Source: Escherichia coli
GTDB taxonomy: Bacteria; Pseudomonadota; Gammaproteobacteria; Enterobacterales; Enterobacteriaceae
DNA: 64,000 bases
Assembly (NCBI RefSeq): GCF_001677475.2
Contig: NZ_CP015229.1
Reading direction: 5' to 3' (one strand)
The stretch's first letter is position 1, and every line of letters starts with the position of its first letter. The translations under genes were made by a program, and so were the position numbers. The notes under the pieces were generated by a model. The model was not told where the DNA came from, made no database searches, and worked only from the letters and a program-made list of their open reading frames with translations. Below are positions 3,905 through 64,000 of this stretch, one piece after another.

Positions 3905-6900
3905 TCAGCTGATACTGATACCTGCTGTGGATTTCTTCATCACCACAACCAGCAGATCGCTGATACTGGTTGTTGGTGTCCAGTTATTCGCTCCTGATGA
4001 AGATACGGTGAATGTCAGTGTCAGCGCCCCCTGTCCGGCAGGCATATCTATAACTGAGGAAAATACGCCCTGAGCATCCGTCGTGGACTGATTAAAAATC
4101 TCCTGACCATTGCGGGTCACTCTTAACCGGCAGGTTGAATACCAGTATGACTGTTGGTTATTACTGTTGAAATTCTCATGCTTACCACCACGGAACAACA
4201 CTGGCGGTATCATGACCTGCCGGTCAAATTTCTGATCATCACTGATTCTTACCGTGATGGTGCCACTGGCATAACTGTTCGTGCGGGGGAAAGACTTGCT
4301 GACCGTTTTGACAATATCGCCTTCAATCTGGTTGGCTGACAGTTTCCCCTTAATCTGACAGTTCTCATTTATCGTGACGTTGTTGAGCGTCCCGGAGTTC
4401 GCATTCACGTTACCGCTGATATCGGCATTTTTAGCGGTCAGCTTTCCGTCCGGTGTCAGGGAAAATGCAGGAGGATTACCGCCGCTGGTAATGGTGGGAG
4501 CCGTCAGATATTTCAGGAACACTTCATTCATGAATATCTGATCACCCTGACCAACAAACATCGGTTTTGTGTTGCCATTTGCAGGATTAATCATCGCAAT
4601 CCTGTCTGCCGCCAGCAGCACCTGACTCTGCATGCCGTCGGGGGTGTTCTCAATACCGGCACCGATACCCGCAATATAAAGGCGACCATCCTGCATCTGC
4701 TGCAGTTTCACGGCCCACATACTGTTCAGGTTATTACTGGTGTCCGTCTGAACCTTTTGTATCTGCTGGATGGTGGCCTCCTGATCTCCCAGCTTCTGGT
4801 CCGTTGTCGTCATGATTTCACTGCTTTTTTGATCCACATACTGGCGAACCTGCGCTATCTGGCGTGCATTCTCCTCATTACTCTGACTGACCGTCTGCGT
4901 GAGTTCGCTGCTGACGTTATCCACTCTCTGGCTCACCTGTGATATACCCAGTGACAGCTCATCATTTTTTTTCGCAACCAGCTGCGTGAGGCTGTTTTCT
5001 GTCTCCCCGATTTTTTGGGTCACTTCAGCAATATCACTCTCTATCTGCTGATTGATCTCATCCTCCAGTTGCTCAACTTCACTGCGCAATGCCGAGGCAT
5101 TAATACGATCGTTCAGCTCCTGCCCCAGCAGGGTGCTGTTTATTTTCCCTTCAAAAAAATGGAGATATTTCTCAGCATCGTTACCCGGCTGGCCAACAGC
5201 CTCCACAAATGCCGATTTGCCGACGGTATTCACACTGCGAACGTAAAAATAATAATTATTGCCCGGCTCAATATCCGGTCCGGAGGCTATCCAGTACAGC
5301 GCCGTACCAAGATAGCGGGCTGTGGTTTCAACCTGCCTGATATCGATAATCCGCTTTTCCGATAACCAGAACTCAAACTGTACCGTCGGGTCATATACAG
5401 CCAGTTTCGGGACCGCCGTTATCTGAAAATACCCCGGTATCAGTTCAATAGTGACAGGCGCTACCGGTGCCGCAATCCGGAACGATACCGACGCCGGATC
5501 ACCCTGCTGCCCCCGGGCATTTACCGCCCGGACCGTCAGCATATAACGCCCCAGCGCCAGTTGTCTGAAGCGGTATGTGGTTTCCGTCGTCCGGGCTGTG
5601 CTGACCAGCCGCTCACTGCCGTCGTCCGCTGCCACGGTCAGGCGAAGCATGAAGCTCACGCCCTTCACCACCTTCGGCGTGTCCCAGCGGGCCAGTACCT
5701 GATACTCCCCGCTGTCTGCGGTGACTTCGGCGGTAAGGTGCTGCACCGCTGGCGGCGTGACACCATTCACCGTGCCGCTCTGGTCGCCGTCAAAGTGCGC
5801 CCCGTTATCCACGATGGCTTCTTTTTCCGGTACATGCTGCACGGCAGTGATGGCATACGTGCCGTCGTCGTTCTCACGGATACTCACGCAGCGGAACAGG
5901 CGCTGGCGCAGCGTCGGCAGCTTCAGCCCCCACACGCTGTATTCTGCAACGCCGTCAGGAACACGGCTCACTTTCACCTTCATGCCGTCGGTGACGGACT
6001 GAACCTCCACGCTGACCGGATTGCCATTTCCGTCAACCAGGCTTATCAGAGTGGTGCCGGAGGATGGCAGCGTGATTTCACGGTCGAGCGTCAGCGTCCG
6101 GGTCTGGCTGTTCACCGCCAGCACGCGACCACCGATGCTGATACCCGCATAGTCATCATCGCAGATTTCAATGATATCGCCCGGCACATGGCGAAGCCCT
6201 TCGGCACCCACGCTGAAGTCCACGGTCTGCGTTTCCAGCAGTTCCGTTTTAATCAGCCACAGCCCGGCGCGGTGCGCCTGCCCCCGGCTGGTACAGCCAA
6301 AGGCATCCATCTTCGTGACGTTACGACCGTAACGGGCAATGGCCTGCGTGTCCTCCACAAGCTCTGTTGCCGTCTCCCAGCCGTTGTCCGGGTCAATCCA
6401 GTTCACCTCAACGGCATTATGGCGGTCCTTCAGGGCGCTGAAGCTGTAGCGGAACGGCGCGCCGTCATCCGGCATCACCACATTACTGCGGTTATAGGTC
6501 CACACCTTATCCGACGGCCGGTCCTGCACGAACGTCAGCGTCTGCCCGTTCCATACCGGCATACAGCGCATCGCCGAGCAGAAATCACTGAGCACATCCC
6601 ACGCCTTACGCTGTGTTGTCAGGTAAGCATTACAGGTGATGCGCGGCTCCGTGCCGCCAAAGCCGTCCGGCACTGACTGGTCGCAGTACTGGCCGATGAC
6701 ATACAGCGCCCATTTATCCACATCCGCCGCACCAAGACGTTTCCCCATGCCGTAGCGCGGATGGGTCAGCATATCCCACAGACACCAGGCCATGTTGTTG
6801 CTGTATGCCGGTTTAAACGTTCCGTCCCAGATACTGCTGTATTGCCGCGTCTGCGGGTTATAGTTCGACGGCACCTGCAGAATGCGCCCGCGAAGATGAT

Positions 6901-7606
6901 AATTACGACTCACCTGCTGGCTGCCGAACTGCTCCGAGTCCACCTGTACACCGACCAGTGCCGTGTTCGGGTAGCCCTGTTTCACATCGATGATTTCGGT
7001 GTATGACGACCAGAGCGTTTTGTTCTGCAGCTGGTCTGTAGTGCTGTCCGGCGTCATCCTGCGCATCCGGATACTGAACGGGCGCGGCGGCAGGTTACCC
7101 ACCACCACCGAGGCCAGATACTGTGAGGTGGTTTTTCCCTTAATGGTGATGTCTTTTTCCGTCACCCAGCCACCGTTACGTTGTATCTGAACCAGCAGGC
7201 GGACTTCCGACGGATTCCGGTCCCCCTTTGAGGTGGTTTCCACCAGTGCCTGCACACCGAAGGTAAAGCGCAGACGGTCGATGTTTGCAGACGTGATGGT
7301 CCGGGTAATCGGCGTGTCGTACTTCACTTCCGTACCCAGCACCGTCTCGGAGCCGGAGGATTCAAATCCCTCCGGCGGTGTCTGCTCCTGCTCACCTGCA
7401 CGGAACACCACCGTGACACCGGAGATATTGGTATTCCCCTCACTGTCCAGCACCGGCGTACTGTTCAGCAGCACGCTTTTTAATCCATCCACCGGACCTT
7501 CAACCGGCCCTTCGCTGATGGCATCGATCACACTCAGCAACTGCGTGGACTTCAGGTTATCCTTCGCTTCGCGCGGGGTATGCCCCTTACTGCTGCCTTT
7601 ACCCAT
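3905..7606 (-). CDS. J: Host specificity / tail tip central fibre protein J
   Basis: 1233-aa ORF; N-terminus [24 protein letters not shown]... resembles lambda J; follows I. Confidence 0.9.
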
Positions 7607-9688: not shown

Positions 9689-10017
9689 CAGTTCACCACC
9701 TGTTCAAACTCTGCGCTGAACTCAACACGCAACATACTGACCCGCGACGACCATTTTGCGCAGGTCACCTTTATCTGCCGGTAGCCATAAGGCGGCGTCC
9801 ACAGAAAGGATTTCCAGCCCCCGTGCTCAGCCAGAAACGACTCAAGCGCCGTGGCCTCCCAACGGGGAACAGAAAGCGTCACGCTGTACGTTTTCAGGTC
9901 GGCATTCAGCCCGGCAGGCGCTCGCTGGGAATAGCCATCACCAAAGCGCACCTTTCTTACGGAAGGGGCCGAAGCCACATCCATACCGGGTTTCACTTTC
10001 CAGCGGAAGGTTTTCAT
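9688..10017 (-). CDS. M: Minor tail protein M
   Basis: 109 aa, lambda M-like; start overlaps H stop. Confidence 0.85.
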   Translation of the reverse strand: MKTFRWKVKPGMDVASAPSVRKVRFGDGYSQRAPAGLNADLKTYSVTLSVPRWEATALESFLAEHGGWKSFLWTPPYGYRQIKVTCAKWSSRVSMLRVEFSAEFEQVVN

Positions 10018-12635
10018 CGTCCACCTCCGGAGAACAGACCACCATCGCGCATCTGCCCGGTCACAACATCCATTGCCGCCTTACGGGCTACGTCATAAAC
10101 AGCCTTCAGTGCCTGTGGCCCTATCTGACCGTTCGTGCCGTCGTTGTTAATCACCACATGGTTATTCTGCTCAAACGTCCCGGACGCCTGCGACCGGCTG
10201 TCCGCCATGCTGCCCGGTGTACCGACATAACCGCCGGTGGCATAGCCGCGCATCAGCCGGTAAAGATTTCCCACGCCAATCCGGCTGGTTGCCTCCTTCG
10301 TGAAGACAAACTCACCACGGTGAACAATCCCCGCTGGCTCATATTTGCCGCCGGTTCCCGTAAATCCTCCGGTCGCAAAATGGAATTTCGCCGCAGCTGC
10401 CTGAATGGCTGTACCACCTGACGCTGATGAGCCGCCACCGGCAGCACCGCCAATGGCGCTGCCGATACTCCCGACAATTCCCACCATTGCCTGCTTAAGC
10501 AGAATTTCTGTCATCATGGACAGCACGGAACGGGTGAAGCTGCGCCAGTTCTGCTCACTGCCGGTCAGCATCGCCGCCATATTCTGCGCAATACCATCAA
10601 AGGTCTGCGTGGCAGCACTTTTAACCTGCGACATACTGTCCGTGGCAGTCTCTTTCCACTCGCTCCAGCCGGACCTGAGGCCTGCCATCCAGCTCCCGCG
10701 AAGCTGGTCTTCAGCTGCCCAGGTCTTTTTCTGCTCTGACATGACGTTATTCAGCGCCAGCGGATTATCGCCATACTGTTCCTTCAGGCGCTGTTCCGTG
10801 GCTTCCCGTTCTGCCTGCCGGTCAGTCAGCCCCCGGCTTTTCGCATCAATAGCGGCCCGTTTTGCCCGTTGCTGCTGTGCGAATTTATCCGCCTGCTGCG
10901 CCAGCGCGTTCAGGCGCTCCTGATACGTAACCTTGTCGCCAAGTGCAGCCAGCTGGCGTTTATACTCCAGCGTCTCATCTTTATGCGCCAGCAGGGATTT
11001 CTCCTGTGCAGACAGCTGGCGACGTTGCGCCGCCTCCTCCAGTACCGCGAACTGACTCTCCGCCTTCCACAAATCCCGGCGCTGCTGGCTGATTTTCTCA
11101 TTCGCTCCGGCATGCTTCTCCAGCGTCCGGAGTTCTGCCTGAAGCGTCAGCAGGGCAGCATGAGCACTGTCTTCCTGACGATCGCCCGCAGACACCTTCA
11201 CGCCGGACTGTTTCGGCTTTTTCAGCGTCGCTTCATAATCCTTTTTCGCCGCCGCCATCAGCGTGTTGTAATCTGCCTGCAGGATTTTCCCGTCTTTCAG
11301 TGCCTTATTCAGTTCTTCCTGACGGGCGGTATATTTCTCCAGTGGCGTCAGCAGGCGCTCATACGCCTTCTGCGCCTCTCCGGTATACTTCAGCTGTGAC
11401 GCCTCACGCTCAGCCCGGTCCCTTGCCACCAGTTCACCGGCTTTTTCCATATCCGACTGCAGCGTGGCTGCCGCCAGCCCCAGACGGGCATTTTCACGGT
11501 CATCCCATGCACCCTGAAGGTTGGCACGGAAAGAGGAGGTCTTTCCCCGGCTCTGACTCCGGCTCTGGTACCACTGCCATTTTTTATCCGCCTCATCAAA
11601 TGCCTTCTGCGCACTGGCGAGCATATCCGCTGAGGATTCAGGACGACCGATATCCAGGATGGCATCCCACATCAATTTGAATGCCTTCCCGGTTTTATCC
11701 GCCCAGGTTTCCAGCGTCCCCATGTTTTCTTTCAGGCGACGGGTCTGCTCATCAAAGCCTTTTGTGGCGATATCGTTCGCCGCCTGTAAGGCCCCTGCCT
11801 CATCACCCGAACGCTGCAGCTGCGCAACATACGCAATCTGCTCTGCCGTCACGTTACGGAACTGGCGCGCCATAGCCATCAGTCCCGACGTCGGGTCGGT
11901 GGTCAGCTTTCCAAAAGCCTCTGCAACCTTGTCCACTTCCACACCGGATACAGAAGCAAAACGCGCCACACTCTGGTTGATGGCATCAAACTGCTCACCA
12001 CCACGCACACCGGCATTCACCAGGGCTGCCAGTGACTCACTCGCCTGGTTAAACGTCAGCCCTGCTGCCTGTCCGGCTCTGGAGAGCGTCAGCATGCGAT
12101 CGGCAGTCAGTCCGGACTGATTACCGGAAAGAACAAGGGTTTTATTAAACGCTGAAAGCGTGGAATCCCCCTGGTACCAGGCATACGCCAGCGCACCTGT
12201 CGCCACCGCCAGCGAGGTGACCCCGACCATCGGCAGGGTGATCGCACCGGCAAGCCCCCTGAACATGGGGAGCATCCCGCCGAAGGCGTCCTTCACCTGA
12301 CCGCCCTGTTGCAGCAGAATAAGCCAGGGATTCTGACCACCGGCAAGCTGCGTGGCGATATCCGTAAACTGTGCAGGCAGGGTACGCATGGCCGCTTTAT
12401 ACTGCCCGACGGAAATCCCGGCTTTTTGTGCAGCCAGCGCCTGACGGCTCAGGCCCTGTTCAACGGCAGTGGCCTGTTTCTTAAAAGACTGGCTGACACG
12501 CCCGGCCATCAAATCCGCAAGGTCACTGGTTTCACCCAGTTCTTTCTTTACCCGTGCAGCCTCTTCAGAAAAACGGGTTGAATCCAGTGTAAGAACAGCT
12601 GTCAGATCGGCAAAATTACCCGCCATAGCGTACAC
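10014..12635 (-). CDS. H: Tail tape measure protein H
   Basis: 873 aa, Ala/Gln-rich helical protein between the G-T chaperone and M. Confidence 0.9.
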   Translation of the reverse strand: MYAMAGNFADLTAVLTLDSTRFSEEAARVKKELGETSDLADLMAGRVSQSFKKQATAVEQGLSRQALAAQKAGISVGQYKAAMRTLPAQFTDIATQLAGGQNPWLILLQQGGQVKDAFGGMLPMFRGLAGAITLPMVGVTSLAVATGALAYAWYQGDSTLSAFNKTLVLSGNQSGLTADRMLTLSRAGQAAGLTFNQASESLAALVNAGVRGGEQFDAINQSVARFASVSGVEVDKVAEAFGKLTTDPTSGLMAMARQFRNVTAEQIAYVAQLQRSGDEAGALQAANDIATKGFDEQTRRLKENMGTLETWADKTGKAFKLMWDAILDIGRPESSADMLASAQKAFDEADKKWQWYQSRSQSRGKTSSFRANLQGAWDDRENARLGLAAATLQSDMEKAGELVARDRAEREASQLKYTGEAQKAYERLLTPLEKYTARQEELNKALKDGKILQADYNTLMAAAKKDYEATLKKPKQSGVKVSAGDRQEDSAHAALLTLQAELRTLEKHAGANEKISQQRRDLWKAESQFAVLEEAAQRRQLSAQEKSLLAHKDETLEYKRQLAALGDKVTYQERLNALAQQADKFAQQQRAKRAAIDAKSRGLTDRQAEREATEQRLKEQYGDNPLALNNVMSEQKKTWAAEDQLRGSWMAGLRSGWSEWKETATDSMSQVKSAATQTFDGIAQNMAAMLTGSEQNWRSFTRSVLSMMTEILLKQAMVGIVGSIGSAIGGAAGGGSSASGGTAIQAAAAKFHFATGGFTGTGGKYEPAGIVHRGEFVFTKEATSRIGVGNLYRLMRGYATGGYVGTPGSMADSRSQASGTFEQNNHVVINNDGTNGQIGPQALKAVYDVARKAAMDVVTGQMRDGGLFSGGGR

Positions 12636-19451: not shown

Positions 19452-19687
19452 TAAAACCTCGCCAGTTTAAATCCCGGTTTTCCCCGCCTGCGGCTCACCA
19501 TCGCGGCAAGCCTGCGTTCCCACTCCTGACGTCCGGCGCGGATCTGAGAAAGGCTTTCCAGCGTCAGTTGCTGTCCGTTGAAGGTGACAGACTTCCCCTC
19601 CAGTACGGCCATTTCCGCTTCACGGTACCGCTGTATCATTTCTCTGGCTTCTTCTGTGCTCACAACCAGCCTCCTGATGTTATCCAT
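19451..19687 (-). CDS. W: Head-tail joining protein W-like
   Basis: 78 aa ending ...RRRGKPGFKLARF, similar to lambda W C-terminus. Confidence 0.65.
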   Translation of the reverse strand: MDNIRRLVVSTEEAREMIQRYREAEMAVLEGKSVTFNGQQLTLESLSQIRAGRQEWERRLAAMVSRRRGKPGFKLARF

Positions 19688-21783
19688 GGATTATCTTCCG
19701 CACGCTCCGTCCGCAGTTTTTTCTTCCGGCGACGGCGTTTTTCTGCCCCGGCCGTCAGTTCCGGGGATGCCGTTTCACCAGAACGCTCCTGCGGGAAGAC
19801 GAGCCACGTTTCCCGCTGTGCCCAGTCCGGTGCGGAGGGCCAGCGGATCTTTTCGTAACCATGCAGAACGGCAAGCGCATCCGCATAAACCAGCAGGTCA
19901 AACGCCTCGTTAGCGCCCCTGCCCGGTTTTCGCCATTTTCCGTCACTGCCGCGCTCTTCATAGGTCAGCTCATCGTAAAACCACCGCCCCAGCCAGTCGG
20001 GAAAGTGGATATAGTTCGGCCCCGGTGTGTCACGCCACAGGGCATTATTTACACGGTCCTTAAACGCATCCGTCTGAACCAGCCACAGCGCGACATCGCC
20101 ACTGGCTCTGGCACGGCGGGCACTTCTGCCGGTATTATCCGGGAAGGTACGGTTAATCAGCCTGTCACGGCGAAGACCATCCCCCTTGAACAGAAACACC
20201 CTGTTGCCCAGTCCGTCACTCCGGCAACGACGCCAGAAACGATAGGCGTTATCTGTCACCCCGGCTTCCCCTCCCGTATCCACCGCCATGGCCATCAGAC
20301 GCATGCGCACATCCGGATCAGAAGCCAGCGGCCATGTTTTATGGAACACATCCGTCAGCAACAAATCCCAGTCCTCCGGATATGCCGCCGGATCAACCGG
20401 CAGACTTTCACCGTTGGGACTGCAGCGCAGTGAATGCCGGATGTTGTAGCGATCAACAATCCAGCGTTCCCCCTGCTCTCCGTATCCGGTGATCTGCACA
20501 ACAAAACGGCGATTTTTACCGCCCTGTACGTCAACCGTTGCCTCAATAAAACGCACACCATCCGGCACAGATCGCCGGGGAAACGGCTCGGCACGCTGTT
20601 CAAGCAGTTCACTTTTACGCTGTTCCGTGGCTGAACGGGGCAGATAGGGTCGTCCGATATCGGTGTTCACCACCACTTTCAGGGTCTCTTCACTGCCGGT
20701 TCGCTCATACTCTTCTTCTGCCGCCAGCAGTTTAAAAATCAGTTGTTCCCAGGTCTGAAACGCCGCAGCCGGCCCCTCCATCCAGAATGACGCAATCCGG
20801 GAATTTCGTGGCGTTCCGGTGATACTGCCGTCCGCCGCCGCCCGTTCACCTTCACGAAGCCAGATCCCCTGGTTATTCAGTTCACGTTTCTGTTCCGGAG
20901 CAATCAGGCCGCAGCAGTGCGGACACATCAGGCGGGCCGCCTGCCCGGCAGCCACAAAATCAGGGTTATTCCGGTAACCGGTCATGTTATCCATCACCGG
21001 CTGAAAATATTCCCCACAGTGCGGACACGGCCAGTACCACCGACGGCGGTCTCCCCGGTTATACAGGGACAGGATCCCCGTTGTTGGGGGTGCCTCATGT
21101 GTGCCGCCACATCGCCATTTGGTGTCAGTGATATCCCGCCCGGGTGAACTCTCGACCAGGGTCATCCCGGAAGACATAAAGGTGGTGGTACGCTTTGATG
21201 CCAGGGTGAAGGCATCCCCTTCCCCGTCCACGTTTTCAGGGAAACGGTCATAATCCGTCAGCGCCACACGACGGTAATCCGAGGAGGAAAATACGGTGAT
21301 CGACGGCCAGCCAATCTTCAGGAAGGAGCCGTCAAGAAACATTTTATCGTGGACGTTGTTGTCATTACGGGAAGGACTGAGACGCTTACTGACCTCCGGG
21401 CTGTGACGAAACGTTCTGGAAAGACGCGTTCTGGAGTGTTCCCGCGCCTTGGTCTCGGTCATCTGCACCACCAGCATATCCGCCGGATCACAGATGATGC
21501 CGTACACAATCCAGCCATCAATCAGCCCTTCGGTTTTCCCGGTCCGCGCCGGTCCTACAAACACCACCGCGTCATATTCACGGGCTGATAATGTATTAAT
21601 GGGGTCAATCATATAGGGCGTCAGTGATGACTCCCACGGACCGGAAGTGTTGGCTCCCCGTGGTACCCGCATATAACGCCTGATGGCTTCCGCTACTGGT
21701 AACCGGCCAGGTGGGCGAAACAGCGAGGCCACTTCGCGCCAGATATCGGATGCGCGGCTATGGCTCTCGTTCACCTGATTCAC
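19660..21783 (-). CDS. Terminase large subunit (lambda A-like)
   Basis: 707 aa; Walker A-like VGPARTGKTEG, lambda A-like N-terminus, basic C-terminal tail. Confidence 0.85.
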   Translation of the reverse strand: MNQVNESHSRASDIWREVASLFRPPGRLPVAEAIRRYMRVPRGANTSGPWESSLTPYMIDPINTLSAREYDAVVFVGPARTGKTEGLIDGWIVYGIICDPADMLVVQMTETKAREHSRTRLSRTFRHSPEVSKRLSPSRNDNNVHDKMFLDGSFLKIGWPSITVFSSSDYRRVALTDYDRFPENVDGEGDAFTLASKRTTTFMSSGMTLVESSPGRDITDTKWRCGGTHEAPPTTGILSLYNRGDRRRWYWPCPHCGEYFQPVMDNMTGYRNNPDFVAAGQAARLMCPHCCGLIAPEQKRELNNQGIWLREGERAAADGSITGTPRNSRIASFWMEGPAAAFQTWEQLIFKLLAAEEEYERTGSEETLKVVVNTDIGRPYLPRSATEQRKSELLEQRAEPFPRRSVPDGVRFIEATVDVQGGKNRRFVVQITGYGEQGERWIVDRYNIRHSLRCSPNGESLPVDPAAYPEDWDLLLTDVFHKTWPLASDPDVRMRLMAMAVDTGGEAGVTDNAYRFWRRCRSDGLGNRVFLFKGDGLRRDRLINRTFPDNTGRSARRARASGDVALWLVQTDAFKDRVNNALWRDTPGPNYIHFPDWLGRWFYDELTYEERGSDGKWRKPGRGANEAFDLLVYADALAVLHGYEKIRWPSAPDWAQRETWLVFPQERSGETASPELTAGAEKRRRRKKKLRTERAEDNPWITSGGWL

Positions 21784-28067: not shown

Positions 28068-28142
<75 letters not shown>

Positions 28143-28145
28143 ATA

Positions 28146-28221
<76 letters not shown>

Positions 28222-41453: not shown

Positions 41454-43925
41454 ATGAATAAAGTCTTTATTTGCGCAGCTATTCCGGACGAACAGGCAAT
41501 AAAGGAAGAAGGTGCAGTCGCTGTGGCCTCTGCCATTGAAGCCGGTGACGAGCGCCGCGCCCGTGCCAAATTTACCTGGCAATTCCTGGAGCAATATCCG
41601 GCTGCTCAGGACTGCGCTTATAAATTTCTTGTCTGTGAGGATAAACCCGGCATGCCCCGCCCTGCCATTGACTCCTGGGATACCGAATATATGCAGGAAA
41701 ACCGCTGGGATGAGGAATGCGCTTCCTTTGTTCCGGTCGAACCAGAATCCGATCCGATGAACGTCAATTTTGACAAGCTGTCCCCTGAAGTACAGAACGC
41801 GGTCCTGATTAAGTTCGGTACATGTGAAAACATCACCGTTGATATGGCGATTGACGCTCAGGAATTACTGCAGGAAGACGTGGCTACCTTTGACGGGCAT
41901 ATCGTTGAAGCACTGATGAAAACGCCTGAAATTAACGCTATGTATCCGGAACGCAAACTGTTCGCTATCGGATGGGTTAAACACAAATGTAAGCCGGGTA
42001 CCAAATGGACCGAAATTCAGGCTGAATTACGTAACTGGAAAAAACGGCAGGACGCAGAGCGCAAAGAGACTGGAAAATACACGTCTGTTGTTGATCTTGC
42101 CCGCGCCAGAGTCAACCGACATAGCACTGAAAACTCAGCAGAAAAAATCAATTCTGTCACTGCCGCCATTCGTCGCGAATACAAGCAGACCTGGAAAACA
42201 CTGGATAAAGAACTGGCCTATGCTCTCTGGCCTGGTGACATTGATGTCCGGAACATTGACGGCAGCATCCATAGATGGGCAAAAAATGAAGTTATCGACA
42301 AGGATCGCGAAGACTGGAAACGCATCTCCGCATCAATGCGCAAACAGCCTGATGCGATTCGCTACAGCCGTCAGACGATTTTTGGCCTTGTTCGTGAACG
42401 TCCGGTCGACATTCACAAAGACCCCGTGGCACTGAATAAATACATCACTGAATACCTTGCGACAAAGGGCGTGTTTGAAGATGAAGAAGAAGATCAGAGC
42501 GTTGTTGATGTTCTCCAGTCGTCAGCATCACAAACTGATGCAGTGGAAACTGAAGTACCTGATACCCAAAAAAATGAAAGCGCGCTGGAAGATGAATCAT
42601 CTGTAGAGCGTGAGGGGCCGTTCTACTTCCTCTTCAGCGATAAGGATGGAGAAAAATACGGTCGCGCAAACAAACTTTCAGGTCTGAATAAGGCGCTCGC
42701 TGCAGGGGCTACTGAAATCACGAAAGAAGAATATTTTGCTCGAAAAAACGGTACATACTCAGGTTCACAACAAAATACTGGTGCATCTGACACGACCGCA
42801 CAACCAGAGCCGGTAAAAGTTACTGCTGACGAAGTGAACAAAATTATGCAGGCAGCCAATATCAGCCTGCCTGACGCCAGTCAGTTGCTCGCTGCATCAC
42901 GTGGTGAATTTGTTGCAGGGATTAGCGACCCGAATGATCTGAAATGGATTAAAGGGATCCAGACCCGCGATTCTATGAACCAAAACCAGCAAGAAACGGA
43001 ACAGAACGACCAGAAAGCGGAACAAAGCAGCCCAAATGCGCAACAAAACGAGCCAGAAACGAAACAATCCGAACCAGTAGTGCAACAGGAACCGGAAAAA
43101 GTCTGCACCGCCTGCGGTCAGAGCGGTGGCGGCAACTGCCCCGATTGTGGCGCGGTCATGGGCAACGCAACATACCAGGAAACATTCGATGAAGAGAATC
43201 AGGTTGAAGCTCAGGAGAATGATCCGGAGGAAATGGAAGGCGCTGAACATCCACACAAGGAGAACACTGGCGGCAATCAGCATCACGCCAGCGATAGTGA
43301 AACTGGCGAGACGGCAGATCCCTTAATTACGGTGAACAGTCATCACGTTATCACATCCACCAGCAGGACGTGTGACCATCTAATGATCGACCTTGAAGCC
43401 ATGGGAATAAATCCTGATGCCCCGATTATCTCAATAGGTGCAATATTTTTCGATCCGCAAACCGGAGATATGGGACCGGAATTTAGTAAGACTGTCGATC
43501 TGGAAACTGCTGGCGGAGTCATTGATCGGGACGCCATTAAATGGTGGCTTAAGCAATCACGCGAAGCGCAATCTGCCATTATGACCGATGAAATCCCGTT
43601 AGATGATGCACTGTTACAATTGCGGGAATTTATCGACGAAAACTCCGGTGAATTTTTTGTTCAGGTCTGGGGAAATGGAGCAAACTTCGACAACACGATT
43701 TTGCGCCGTTCATACGAACGGCAGGGGATCCCCTGCCCGTGGCGTTACTACAACGATCGCGATGTGCGCACAATCGTTGAGCTGGGGAAAGCCATAGACT
43801 TCGATGCCAGAACTGCTATCCCATTCGAAGGTGAGCGCCATAATGCACTTGATGACGCTCGTTACCAGGCAAAATACGTTTCAGCTATCTGGCAAAAACT
43901 GATCCCGAGTCAGGCTGATTTTTAA
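41454..43925 (+). CDS. Large prophage exonuclease (YdfE/RecE-position) with Zn-ribbon and C-terminal DEDDh 3'-5' exonuclease domain
   Basis: 823 aa; CTACGQSGGGNCPDCG ribbon; C-terminal DnaQ-like motifs (MIDLEAMG..., HNALDDARY). Confidence 0.65.
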   Translation: MNKVFICAAIPDEQAIKEEGAVAVASAIEAGDERRARAKFTWQFLEQYPAAQDCAYKFLVCEDKPGMPRPAIDSWDTEYMQENRWDEECASFVPVEPESDPMNVNFDKLSPEVQNAVLIKFGTCENITVDMAIDAQELLQEDVATFDGHIVEALMKTPEINAMYPERKLFAIGWVKHKCKPGTKWTEIQAELRNWKKRQDAERKETGKYTSVVDLARARVNRHSTENSAEKINSVTAAIRREYKQTWKTLDKELAYALWPGDIDVRNIDGSIHRWAKNEVIDKDREDWKRISASMRKQPDAIRYSRQTIFGLVRERPVDIHKDPVALNKYITEYLATKGVFEDEEEDQSVVDVLQSSASQTDAVETEVPDTQKNESALEDESSVEREGPFYFLFSDKDGEKYGRANKLSGLNKALAAGATEITKEEYFARKNGTYSGSQQNTGASDTTAQPEPVKVTADEVNKIMQAANISLPDASQLLAASRGEFVAGISDPNDLKWIKGIQTRDSMNQNQQETEQNDQKAEQSSPNAQQNEPETKQSEPVVQQEPEKVCTACGQSGGGNCPDCGAVMGNATYQETFDEENQVEAQENDPEEMEGAEHPHKENTGGNQHHASDSETGETADPLITVNSHHVITSTSRTCDHLMIDLEAMGINPDAPIISIGAIFFDPQTGDMGPEFSKTVDLETAGGVIDRDAIKWWLKQSREAQSAIMTDEIPLDDALLQLREFIDENSGEFFVQVWGNGANFDNTILRRSYERQGIPCPWRYYNDRDVRTIVELGKAIDFDARTAIPFEGERHNALDDARYQAKYVSAIWQKLIPSQADF

Positions 43926-43977: not shown

Positions 43978-44187
43978 ATGGCTATGAGCAGCTTATTTTT
44001 AACCGAAGATGAATTGCTAATATTAACGGGCTGCAAATATGCAAGCCACCAGCGAAAATGGTTAATGGAAAACGGGCTTCCGTTCTATACCAATCGTAGT
44101 GGCAAACCGATTGTCAGCCGGGATCTATTTACCTGCAATAAAACTTTACCACCACGCGAGGTAGAGCCGAATTTTGGTGCAATCTGA
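43978..44187 (+). CDS. xis: Excisionase-like protein
   Basis: 69-aa ORF immediately upstream of and overlapping integrase start. Confidence 0.6.
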   Translation: MAMSSLFLTEDELLILTGCKYASHQRKWLMENGLPFYTNRSGKPIVSRDLFTCNKTLPPREVEPNFGAI

Positions 44188-45212
44188 TGGGAAGACGAAG
44201 GAAAAATCCTGAACACGAAAAATTACCTCCAAATGTATACCCAAATAAATATAGTTATGTATGGAAACCAACATCCAGAGAATCTGTCACACTAACCGCC
44301 ATCAAGGATGGTTTAGCTGCTTTATGGAAAAAGTATGAGGAAACTGTAAATAATCGCGATCGCGCAATGACATTCGGTCGCTTGTGGGAAAAATTCCTCG
44401 CCAGCGCCTATTACAGTGACCTCAGTCCAAGAACACAAAAAGATTATCTGCAACATCAAAAAAAGTTGCTTGCCGTATTCGGTAAGGTGCCGGCAGATTC
44501 CATAAAACCAGAACACATCCGTCGATACATGGACAAGAGAGGGGAACAGAGTAAAACGCAAGCCAACCATGAAAAAAGCAGTATGTCCCGCGTTTACAAT
44601 TGGGGGTATGAGCGAGGGTACGTGAAGGGTAACCCATGTGCAGGTGTAAGTAAATTCAAGGCCAAAAACCGCGAACGATATGTAACCGACAAAGAATACC
44701 AGGCAGTATTAAGTGTTGCACCTCTTCCTGTTTTTATCGCAATGGAAATTGCCTATCTGTGTGCAGCGAGGGTTTCCGATGTGTTATCACTGAAATGGGA
44801 GCAGATTGGAAACGACGGGATCTTTATCCAGCAAGGGAAAACAGGGAAAAAACAGATAAAAGCATGGAGTCCACGATTACAGGCGGCGATCGAAAAAGCA
44901 AAACAGTTACCAACATCTGCCTATGTAATCAGCAATCAATATGGCAACCGATATATGTACAAAGGTTTTAACGAAATGTGGGTAGAAGCAAGAAATCACG
45001 CAGGCAAAATTTCAGGTATTTTAACCGACTTCACCTTTCATGATCTGAAGGCGAAAGGAATTTCAGACTATGAAGGAAGCAGCCGGGATAAGCAACTTTT
45101 CTCTGGTCACAAAACCGAAGGGCAAGTGCTAATCTATGACAGAAAGGTTAAAGTTTCACCAACACTTGATGTCCCGTTACCTGATAATATTCCAAGAAAA
45201 TATTCCAAGTAA
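44187..45212 (+). CDS. int: Tyrosine integrase
   Basis: 341 aa; C-terminal catalytic region with R...HDLKAKG...GHKTEGQVLIY; 3' end 43 nt from serU. Confidence 0.9.
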   Translation: MGRRRKNPEHEKLPPNVYPNKYSYVWKPTSRESVTLTAIKDGLAALWKKYEETVNNRDRAMTFGRLWEKFLASAYYSDLSPRTQKDYLQHQKKLLAVFGKVPADSIKPEHIRRYMDKRGEQSKTQANHEKSSMSRVYNWGYERGYVKGNPCAGVSKFKAKNRERYVTDKEYQAVLSVAPLPVFIAMEIAYLCAARVSDVLSLKWEQIGNDGIFIQQGKTGKKQIKAWSPRLQAAIEKAKQLPTSAYVISNQYGNRYMYKGFNEMWVEARNHAGKISGILTDFTFHDLKAKGISDYEGSSRDKQLFSGHKTEGQVLIYDRKVKVSPTLDVPLPDNIPRKYSK

Positions 45213-45254: not shown

Positions 45255-45344
45255 GATTGAATTTTGGCGGAGAGAGGGGGATTTGAACCCCCGGTGGAGT
45301 TGCCCCCACTCCGGTTTTCGAGACCGGTCCGTTCAGCCGCTCCG
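45255..45344 (-). tRNA. serU: tRNA-Ser (anticodon CGA), serU; prophage attachment site
   Basis: 90-nt tRNA with long variable arm, anticodon loop CUCGAAA, GGTTCAAATCC T-arm, CCA end. Confidence 0.9.
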
Positions 45345-45447
45345 GCATCTCTCCGTTCAGATGGTTGCCATGATGCCAGGAAATTTGGCATTTTAACAGT
45401 CCCTGTCCGTGCAATTTTGTTCAAGTGACGAGTTTGCGAGCAAAACG

Positions 45448-61071: not shown

Positions 61072-61147
61072 TGGCTCCTCTGACTGGACTCGAACCAGTG
61101 ACATACGGATTAACAGTCCGCCGTTCTACCGACTGAACTACAGAGGA
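61072..61147 (-). tRNA. asnW: tRNA-Asn (GUU)
   Basis: Reverse complement identical to the asnT sequence. Confidence 0.95.
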
Positions 61148-61247: not shown

Positions 61248-62735
61248 TTATTCCGACACAACTGGCTTTTTTTCACACTTTTGCGGCTCGGGTCGAGGGT
61301 ATTTCCATAGCCAACGTCCAGTAACCATTCGCCAGTAAAACAGCACGGCCCGCACAGCCCAGTCGGCAAACATTCCCATCCAGACACCAACCACACCCCA
61401 GCCAAGCATGATTCCCAGCACATAACCGACTACAACCCGGCAACCCCACATGCTCAACATAGAAACCCACATGGCGTAACGGGCATCACGAGCACCTTTA
61501 AATCCAGCGGGTAGCACCCATGAGGCGGACCAAATAGGCATAAATAAAGCATTTAGCCAAATCAGAATCACAACGACATGTTTAACCTGTGGATCCTGGG
61601 TGTAAAACGATGCCATAAGCCCGGCAAAGGGAGCCGTTAGCCAGGCGATGGCCGTTAACCCAAGAGTGGACAGCCAGAACACATGCCGCAACTGAATCTC
61701 TGCTTGCGCTATCTGCCCTACCCCCAACCTTCGGCCTGTAATGATCGTAGAAGCAGAGCCGAGCGCACTTCCGGGTAAGTTGATAAGAGCCGCAATTGAA
61801 AACGCGATAAAATTTCCGGCAATAACACTGGTCCCCATCCCGGCAACGAACATTTGGGTTAATAACCGACCACTGGTAAATAACACTGATTCGACACTCG
61901 CGGGAATACCAATCCCCATGACTTCCCAGATAATGCTAAAATTCAGCGGTTTAAAATAGCTCTTTAACGAAATCCTTAGCGCAGGATTAAAACCAATCGC
62001 CAGCACCCACAAAATTGCAACTGCGCCAATATAACGAGAAATGGTTAAACCCAACCCAGCCCCGACAAATCCCAGTCCCGGCCAGGAGAAAAGGCCGTAA
62101 ATCAATATGCCGCTAATAATAATATTAAGAATATTCAGGCTACCGTTAATCAGTAGCGGTATTTTCGTATTCCCTGCACCACGAAGTGCCCCGCTACCAA
62201 TTAGAGTGATGGCAGCTGCTGGATAACTGAGTACCGTCAGCTCCAGATAAGTCAACGCCAGTGCTTTAACTTCTGTCGTGGCATCACCCGCGACGAAATC
62301 AATAATTTGCTCGCCAAAATGATGAATAAGCGTTGCCAACAGTACGGCAAACAACGTCATGATCACCAATGACTGCCGCGTCGCCACCCTCGCTCGTCGT
62401 CGATCCCGCTTACCGAGACTAAATGCCACAACGACAGTAGTACCAAGATCGATAGCAGCAAAAAAAGCCATAATGACCATATTGAAGCTGTCCGCCAATC
62501 CCACGCCGGCCATCGCATCTTTTCCCAGCCAGCTGACCAGAAAAGTGCTCAGGACCCCCATCAGCAGGACACAGGCATTCTCCATGAAGATAGGAACAGC
62601 AAGCGGGGTTATCTCGCGCCAGAACAACACTTTGTAGCTCTTGCGTTTAGCGTGCCAGCGAGTGCCGTGAACAACCTGGCGTAAAGCAGAGGAGATATTC
62701 AAAGCCGACCTTAATTGCAGAAAGTGAAACCACAT
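61248..62735 (-). CDS. yeeO: MATE-family efflux transporter YeeO (ORF open to 62888; start at MWFHFLQ chosen)
   Basis: 12-TM MATE-like protein between asnW and asnU. Confidence 0.8.
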   Translation of the reverse strand: MWFHFLQLRSALNISSALRQVVHGTRWHAKRKSYKVLFWREITPLAVPIFMENACVLLMGVLSTFLVSWLGKDAMAGVGLADSFNMVIMAFFAAIDLGTTVVVAFSLGKRDRRRARVATRQSLVIMTLFAVLLATLIHHFGEQIIDFVAGDATTEVKALALTYLELTVLSYPAAAITLIGSGALRGAGNTKIPLLINGSLNILNIIISGILIYGLFSWPGLGFVGAGLGLTISRYIGAVAILWVLAIGFNPALRISLKSYFKPLNFSIIWEVMGIGIPASVESVLFTSGRLLTQMFVAGMGTSVIAGNFIAFSIAALINLPGSALGSASTIITGRRLGVGQIAQAEIQLRHVFWLSTLGLTAIAWLTAPFAGLMASFYTQDPQVKHVVVILIWLNALFMPIWSASWVLPAGFKGARDARYAMWVSMLSMWGCRVVVGYVLGIMLGWGVVGVWMGMFADWAVRAVLFYWRMVTGRWLWKYPRPEPQKCEKKPVVSE

Positions 62736-62895
62736 TTCAAATGATGAGGGAGAATCAGCAAAGCTGCAAAGATTTTCGCCAACAAATTGTCTGCAAATGC
62801 AACAAACTGTTGATAGAAACGGCAAACAGTTGGGGAATTTAAAAATCGGGTTTGACAAAAGATTTTTCGCCGTTAAGATGTGCCTCAACAGCGAT

Positions 62896-62971
62896 TCCTC
62901 TGTAGTTCAGTCGGTAGAACGGCGGACTGTTAATCCGTATGTCACTGGTTCGAGTCCAGTCAGAGGAGCCA
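62896..62971 (+). tRNA. asnU: tRNA-Asn (GUU)
   Basis: Identical to asnT sequence. Confidence 0.95.
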
Positions 62972-62980
62972 AATTTCTAA

Positions 62981-63008: not shown

Positions 63009-63428
63009 CTATATCTGATAATCAATTTCCTCTTCACTGTTTTCCATCACCTGCCGCTTAATATCCTCAACTGACAGTCCTGCATTACAAAGTTCCAGAA
63101 AGCGCCAGACATAGTTACGCTGAAGTTGTCCTCGCTTGAGTCCCAACCAGACAGTATTAGCATCAAAAAGATGCCGCGTATCCAGGCGGATTAGATTCTC
63201 TTCCTCTTGTTCGCCGCTGGATTGTTCGGCAACTAATCCGATCCCAAGCCCAAGAGCAACATAGGTTTTAATGACATCAGAATCCTGCGCACTTAATACA
63301 ATATCTGCCAGCAAACCTTTGCGGGCAAATGCGTCATCAATACGTGAGCGCCCCGTAATCCCCTGTCGGTAAGTGATTAACGGCCACTTCGCTATTGATT
63401 CCAGCGTCAATGGTGAAATTTGCGTCAA
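63009..63428 (-). pseudogene. cbl: cbl (LysR-family sulfonate regulator), C-terminal 139 codons only; truncated by IS insertion
   Basis: LTQISPLTLESIAKWPLITYRQGITGRSRIDD... to stop; N-terminal HTH and first ~175 codons replaced by IS sequence from 63429. Confidence 0.8.
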
Positions 63429-64000
63429 GTATGAGACGACAATAACTCAGTCCGCCTGGCGCCGATTATTCTGGCCGGTTTTGTAACCTGAGTGTCATTT
63501 ACATGATCCAACAGGAAATGGCGTGACGCTCAATACTTCTCAGGTCAGTTACTATATGACTCAGCGTAAGAAAGGTATAACTCAGCATATCTCGGCCATG
63601 AAGGCTGGTATCTCAGTCCGTTCTGGTCGTCGGATCGAAAAAGGAGAGTGGGCAAAAAACAGTGTTCGGCACTGGCGCACACGCAAAGATCCTCTGGAAG
63701 CTGTGTGGGACAGCATGCTTGTTCCTCTGTTGAAAGAGAGGCCGGCTCTGACACCAACAACTCTACTGGAGATGCTACAGGATAAATATCCCGGCCAGTA
63801 CCCCAACAGCCTTCGAAGAACAATGCAACGGCGGGTTCGCGAATGGAAACTACAGTATGGTACAGAGCAGGAGGTCATGTTCCGCCAGCAACATCAGCCC
63901 GGCCTGCGAGGCCTGTCGGACTTTACTGAACTGAAAGGTGTAGTTGTCACCATCGCCGGTAAGTTGTTGGCGCATAAGTTGTATCACTTCCGTCTGGAAT
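63429..64000 (+). mobile_element. IS21-family insertion sequence, 5' portion (left inverted repeat and istA start), continues beyond window
   Basis: Junction with cbl at 63428/63429; terminal ~50 bp is inverse of the IS end at 320-366; istA follows. Confidence 0.6.
63556..64000 (+). CDS. istA: IS21-family transposase IstA, N-terminal part (runs off window)
   Basis: MTQRKKGITQHISAMKAGISVRSGRRIEKGE... HTH then start of DDE domain; no stop before window end. Confidence 0.65.
   Translation, partial: MTQRKKGITQHISAMKAGISVRSGRRIEKGEWAKNSVRHWRTRKDPLEAVWDSMLVPLLKERPALTPTTLLEMLQDKYPGQYPNSLRRTMQRRVREWKLQYGTEQEVMFRQQHQPGLRGLSDFTELKGVVVTIAGKLLAHKLYHFRLE

Follow-up and report, generated by a model that had tools for sequence, protein, structure and literature searches.

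The window examined here, a 64,000-nt stretch of Escherichia coli DNA, ends on its right at the locus of cbl. The gene order at this end, yeeN-asnW-yeeO-asnU-cbl, is standard for E. coli and matches the annotated locus L001. It includes a tRNA-Asn gene at 61072 to 61147 (minus strand), yeeO at 61248 to 62888 (minus strand), the tRNA-Asn(GTT) gene asnU at 62896 to 62971 (plus strand; called by ARAGORN and placed in the same arrangement in L001) and, convergent with asnU, the 3' remnant of cbl at 63009 to 63429 (minus strand). The remaining 571 bp, 63430 to 64000 (plus strand), are the left part of the insertion sequence ISEc10. The orthologous position of cbl is between asnU and nac; the asnU side is present in the window, and the nac side is visible only in the contigs of sister assemblies described below. 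With asnU next to the remnant, this is the normal chromosomal cbl locus.

Two small features of this neighborhood are recorded here for completeness. The yeeO product is called as 495 aa (RefSeq start at 62735) or as 547 aa (upstream TTG or alternative start) in different assemblies with the same sequence, which is an annotation inconsistency only. The window also departs from every compared locus at 62979 (A in place of G) and 62994 (T in place of A); these positions lie just past asnU and in the loop of a hairpin common to the convergent asnU and cbl.

The remnant was delimited from the list of open reading frames and by alignment to intact cbl. It consists of the last 421 nt (nt 531 to 951) of the 951-nt gene: the stop codon TAG at 63009 to 63011, codons 178 to 316 at 63012 to 63428, and a single base of codon 177 at 63429. 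The corresponding ORF (63009 to 63428, minus strand) encodes 139 aa and aligns to positions 178 to 316 of the 316-position NCBIfam Cbl equivalog model NF009324 (E = 8e-83). Since the match covers those positions only and scores 278 bits, against a curated cut-off of 491 bits and 687.5 bits for the intact sister protein, the window holds a fragment of the gene and not a Cbl gene. In the gene tables the 138/139-aa piece retains only PF03466, part of the LysR substrate-binding domain, and the N-terminal HTH_1 domain of Cbl is absent from the window. The retained residues are identical to residues 178 to 316 of the intact Cbl encoded by a sister locus (L020), relative to which the remnant has no non-synonymous change; one residue, G249, differs from the Ser of the L001 protein, a common polymorphism. 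Nowhere in the full 64 kb did a search find the missing 5' part of cbl, nac or another ISEc10 copy; it returned only the repeats formed by tRNA-Asn genes.

At the nucleotide level, homology to intact cbl is perfectly colinear through 63429 and absent beyond it, and the window from 63430 is the exact left terminus of ISEc10. The initial annotation, made from the sequence alone, had described cbl as broken by an IS21-family insertion, and this is borne out, with the element now named from its identity and its exact terminus. The break had been put at 63428/63429, one base from where it lies: that position is a codon boundary, and the DNA junction is 63429/63430. By megablast, the 571 nt match, at up to 99.8% identity, features that are annotated as "IS21-like element ISEc10 family transposase" across hundreds of E. 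coli genomes; the identity to annotated copies is 99.7 to 99.8%. In a base-by-base comparison with four reference copies of ISEc10 we counted one to seven mismatches (one against the copy in L019), an identity above the isoform-level criterion of at least 95%. All four references begin with TATGAGACG directly after unrelated flanking DNA, as the element does at 63430, and the element start in all four reads TATGAGACGACAATAACTC. The left inverted repeat (IRL), at 63430 to 63477, is identical to that in L019. Judged from these alignments, neither the resemblance to cbl nor that to ISEc10 is a product of chance.

Behind the IRL, istA begins with a GTG codon at 63523, a start taken from the RefSeq annotation of the copies in L019, L034 and L035. 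Its frame (63523 to 64000, plus strand) runs for 159 of 499 codons without a stop and leaves the window at 64000; over this visible part there is one amino acid difference from WP_000174400.1. The partial product matches the IS21-family transposase model NF033546 (E = 6e-24) with 85 bits, less than the whole-protein cut-off of 160 bits because the window end cuts the gene; the full-length reference IstA scores 227.5 bits. The catalytic domain of IstA lies outside the window and istB lies beyond 64000.

For the organization of the whole element we relied on the three complete reference copies (L019, L034 and L035) and on one truncated copy (L002). Complete ISEc10 is 2410 bp long, with a 499-codon istA that starts with GTG 93 nt from the end of the element and overlaps an istB of 251 codons. 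The full-length IstA and IstB of the reference copies exceed the NCBIfam cut-offs for the IS21 transposase and the IS21 helper ATPase, and the three istB genes match NF038214 with 266.7 bits. The termini of the copy in L019 are 48-nt imperfect inverted repeats, 71% complementary, and the reference insertions are bordered by target duplications of 5 bp (GTATG), 6 bp (GGCAAG) and 8 bp (CTCATAAG). The likeness to IS21 thus extends from the N-terminal region of IstA, which fits the family's transposase model, to an istB matching IS21_help_AAA, imperfect terminal repeats and 5- to 8-bp target-site duplications (TSDs) in the reference copies. The ends are a point of difference. IS21-family termini are usually TG...CA, whereas ISEc10 ends in TA...TA. 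As for the window copy, it shares the terminal sequence, the IRL and the istA start with annotated ISEc10, and differs from the known copies in that only its left quarter is visible and in that the cbl site is not found among 5,426 complete RefSeq E. coli genomes.

IS21-family elements transpose by means of the DDE transposase IstA, which the AAA+ ATPase IstB activates and directs to the target (PMC10122671, PMC11208146). By analogy, the same mechanism may be carried over to ISEc10, an element whose activity in E. coli CFT073 was revealed by new insertions near lpp that arose under selection (PMC7482066). We also noted that three of five left flanks of ISEc10 end in AAG: TCAAG in the window (AAG at 63427 to 63429), GGCAAG in L034 (3002 to 3004) and CTCATAAG in L035 (3001 to 3003). 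The remaining two have GTATG and AGAAC at this point. The element may have a weak target preference, but five flanks are too few to establish one.

Insertion sequences are classic sites of misassembly, and the junction could in principle be a chimeric join between a contig ending in cbl and a contig carrying the IS, with cbl truly intact in the cell. The exact junction is indeed found in no other public sequence among those searched: by megablast of the junction region, no record among the 5,426 complete RefSeq E. coli genomes spans it, and the exact junction 40-mer has zero matches in species-representative genomes and in JGI metagenomes. A search of the literature on ISEc10 and on cbl with insertion sequences likewise found no report of cbl::ISEc10. 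Against a chimera, the junction coincides precisely with the terminal base of the IS, and some 10 independent drafts of the same lineage break within 2 to 4 nt of the same site, on both sides. An artefact is therefore the least credible account of the locus, and we regard it as highly improbable.

The lineage was found through an exact and rare allele of YeeJ, present on 13 contigs; the YeeO allele was rejected as a marker because it is too common. On the asnU side, the contig of one assembly of the lineage (L023, GCA_016118665.1) matches the window at 99.996% identity over 26,448 nt and stops at window position 63425. Three further contigs (L021, L022 and L024) break off at exactly this position, and two (L036 and L037) end within 63425 to 63427. 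A look-up of the cut 138-aa product retrieved about 10 NCBI isolate contigs that start at cbl nt 533 to 535 and are 100% identical to the window where compared. On the nac side, the 177-aa N-terminal cut product led to nine long contigs that carry cbl nt 1 to 533. One of these, the 179-kb contig L026 (GCA_033745465.1), reads cobUST-ldtA-nac, with nac intact, followed by cbl nt 1 to 533 and the end of the contig. Short-read assemblies split at multicopy repeats, so breaks that approach the junction from both sides to within 2 to 4 nt are the pattern that a real IS insertion would leave.

The same look-up gave 56 blocks with the 177-aa product, which raised the idea of an insertion hotspot in cbl. 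We rejected it, since 42 of the 56 consist solely of contigs shorter than 2 kb, and the eight contigs compared from metagenomes or sequencing runs share only about 98% identity with the lineage and thus belong to other strains. The many metagenome contigs that end at cbl nt 531 to 533 come from such strains and are random ends picked out by a query of exact length. Information comes only from the nine blocks that include long contigs, the NCBI isolate contig L026 among them.

The initial annotation had stated that only the C-terminal 139 codons of cbl remain and had proposed looking beyond the element for the rest. The statement holds within the window but not for the lineage: the sister assemblies keep nt 1 to 533, next to an intact nac, on contigs that end at the same site. 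The nac-side contigs reach cbl nt 533, equivalent to window position 63427, and so overlap the nt 531 to 533 that the window also carries. This 3-nt overlap points to a TSD of at least 3 bp and not to a deletion. By analogy with the reference copies, the TSD of cbl::ISEc10 would be 5 to 8 bp long; its probable left copy, placed from the reference duplications and the overlap of the sister contigs, occupies 63425 to 63429 (TCAAG) if 5 bp and may reach back to 63422 if 8 bp, with the right copy outside the window. When we predicted the read-through ORFs at the right junction for TSD lengths of 1 to 10, none was present in the protein collection. The lineage drafts themselves (L021 to L024, L026, L036 and L037) stop 2 to 4 nt before the junction on both sides without a single IS base, presumably as a result of end-trimming by the assembler.

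These observations also bear on whether the 5' half, and perhaps nac and DNA further on, has been deleted, inverted or moved through recombination between ISEc10 copies or through an adjacent deletion. Such a rearrangement has some appeal: the far side of the IS lies outside the window, some E. coli genomes carry ISEc10 at as many as 10 places, which could serve as recombination substrates, and truncated copies such as that in L002 do exist. Yet sisters from the same clone keep nac and cbl nt 1 to 533 on a long contig running to the same site, and the 3 nt shared with the window's cbl bases fit a TSD and not a deletion. We therefore consider a deletion or rearrangement unlikely. The arrangement beyond the window is read from the sister assemblies, and most likely the N-terminal half of cbl is still present past the IS, uncoupled from the 3' half and not lost.

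The age of the event can be judged from the same strains. The sister L020 (GCA_016118575.1), which has an intact 316-codon cbl followed by nac, differs from the window by 5 mismatches over 26.7 kb and, across the 1,312 nt it shares with L026, is 100% identical to that contig. An intact gene in so close a relative implies that the insertion is recent and arose inside the clone, in keeping with a remnant free of non-synonymous changes. In the cbl region, no complete RefSeq E. coli genome comes closer than about 99% identity, so the lineage is without a complete-genome representative.

Taken together, the locus is very probably the product of a simple and recent insertion of ISEc10 into cbl at codon 177/178, with both halves of the gene kept and a cbl-null state expected. 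In outline, an ISEc10 copy would have transposed into the chromosomal cbl through the IstA DDE transposase, assisted by the AAA+ helper IstB, in the middle of the region encoding the effector-binding domain and with istA on the plus strand, opposite to cbl. The two halves of the gene would now be separated by 2.4 kb of IS with a short target duplication at both sides. Past 64000 one would expect the rest of ISEc10, a right inverted repeat (IRR) ending in GTTGACGTCTAATA, a target repeat ending in TCAAG, then GGATGATCGTGTGG (cbl from nt 530 downwards) and nac. The allele would have arisen in one E. coli clone and been inherited by roughly 10 sequenced isolates.

According to PMC11495319 and the papers cited there, Cbl is a LysR regulator resembling CysB, and during sulfate starvation it activates tauABCD and ssuEADCB. 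The structure of the Cbl effector domain (2FYI) spans residues 87 to 306, which places the break, at residue 177/178, inside the effector-binding domain. Neither half of the gene is expected, from its sequence, to make a working regulator. The 5' half would give a protein of about 180 aa comprising the HTH, the linker, about half of the regulatory domain and a few residues encoded by the IS. An in-frame fusion beyond the element, one of two escapes foreseen in the initial annotation, is unlikely: every predicted read-through into the right end of the IS stops or changes frame. The 3' half is without a DNA-binding domain; reading of the sequence found no Shine-Dalgarno motif upstream of its TTG codon, and a scan found no promoter-like site. 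The other escape, a second intact cbl elsewhere in the genome, is likewise unlikely, since the gene is single copy, with a median of one place per genome among the 5,418 complete genomes that have it.

On the strength of the published biology of Cbl, on which this reasoning rests, loss of Cbl-dependent activation of tauABCD and ssuEADCB would be the expected phenotype, and the strain would probably fail to grow when taurine or an aliphatic sulfonate is the sole sulfur source. Assimilation of sulfate and cysteine through CysB would be unaffected. A polar effect is not expected, since no further gene lies between cbl and the convergent asnU. The same gene is lost, with the same expected phenotype, in the cbl null mutants of K-12 as these are presented in PMC11495319 (Iwanicka-Nowicka & Hryniewicz 1995; van der Ploeg et al. 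1997, 1999). The case described here differs in being a natural IS insertion in a wild lineage and not a laboratory allele, in that the phenotype is predicted, and in that the 5' half might still yield a truncated product of about 180 aa that retains HTH and linker.

In 5,411 of 5,426 complete E. coli genomes, at least 80% of the length of cbl is uninterrupted, so large disruptions are rare (below 0.3%). An exact look-up of the 139-aa ORF matched six contigs, none with an IS. Their cbl alleles are nonsense or 1-nt deletion alleles with no relation to the insertion. These contigs (L003 to L008) are unrelated and carry independent inactivating mutations within cbl nt 456 to 531; they include a TGG-to-TAG nonsense codon in L003 and single-base deletions at nt 465 (L006), 470 (L008), 497 (L004) and 529 (L005). 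The exact look-up brought them together because all of them leave the same downstream ORF.

The initial annotation had also raised the loss of Cbl as a potentially selectable change, which is speculation. On this reading the loss was itself selected, and the insertion is not a neutral or mildly deleterious hitch-hiker. Its presence in most sequenced members of the lineage would fit, as would the occurrence of several unrelated public contigs with their own nonsense or frameshift mutations in cbl. Those mutants, however, are a handful among thousands of contigs and were retrieved by a query biased toward such alleles. No parallel IS insertions came to light, and the contiguity of cbl in nearly all complete genomes speaks for general maintenance; adaptive loss is accordingly a doubtful account. 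Somewhat less probable still is the broader proposition that the loss of Cbl was positively selected or that the fragment of about 180 aa, with its HTH and linker, acts as a non-activating binder at Cbl or CysB sites. Were it true, selection could have acted, for example, by making sulfonate-scavenging genes less costly or through changed Cbl-linked regulation of sulfur metabolism or virulence in the host gut, and the insertion of ISEc10 would amount to regulatory adaptation, more than a pseudogene.

The fragment at positions 63009 to 63429 is best labeled as a pseudogene of cbl, split by ISEc10. The inactivation of a non-essential regulator by a known IS in one clone is an ordinary event of the textbook kind, and cbl::ISEc10 is mostly a matter of bookkeeping that raises no open biological question. 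The junction is nevertheless a clean, clone-specific marker, shared by about 10 drafts and absent from a very close relative, and could be used to type the lineage.

Elsewhere in the window, within positions 1 to 45354, a lambdoid prophage fills about the first 45 kb, with genes for the tail fiber J (3905 to 7606), the tape measure protein (10014 to 12635), the terminase large subunit (19660 to 21783), an exonuclease (41454 to 43925) and an integrase (44187 to 45212), as well as phage tRNA-Gly and tRNA-Thr genes (28068 to 28221). The prophage adjoins a tRNA-Ser(CGA) gene (45265 to 45354) and mtfA, and the differences between the window and the sister assemblies fall mainly in the prophage region.
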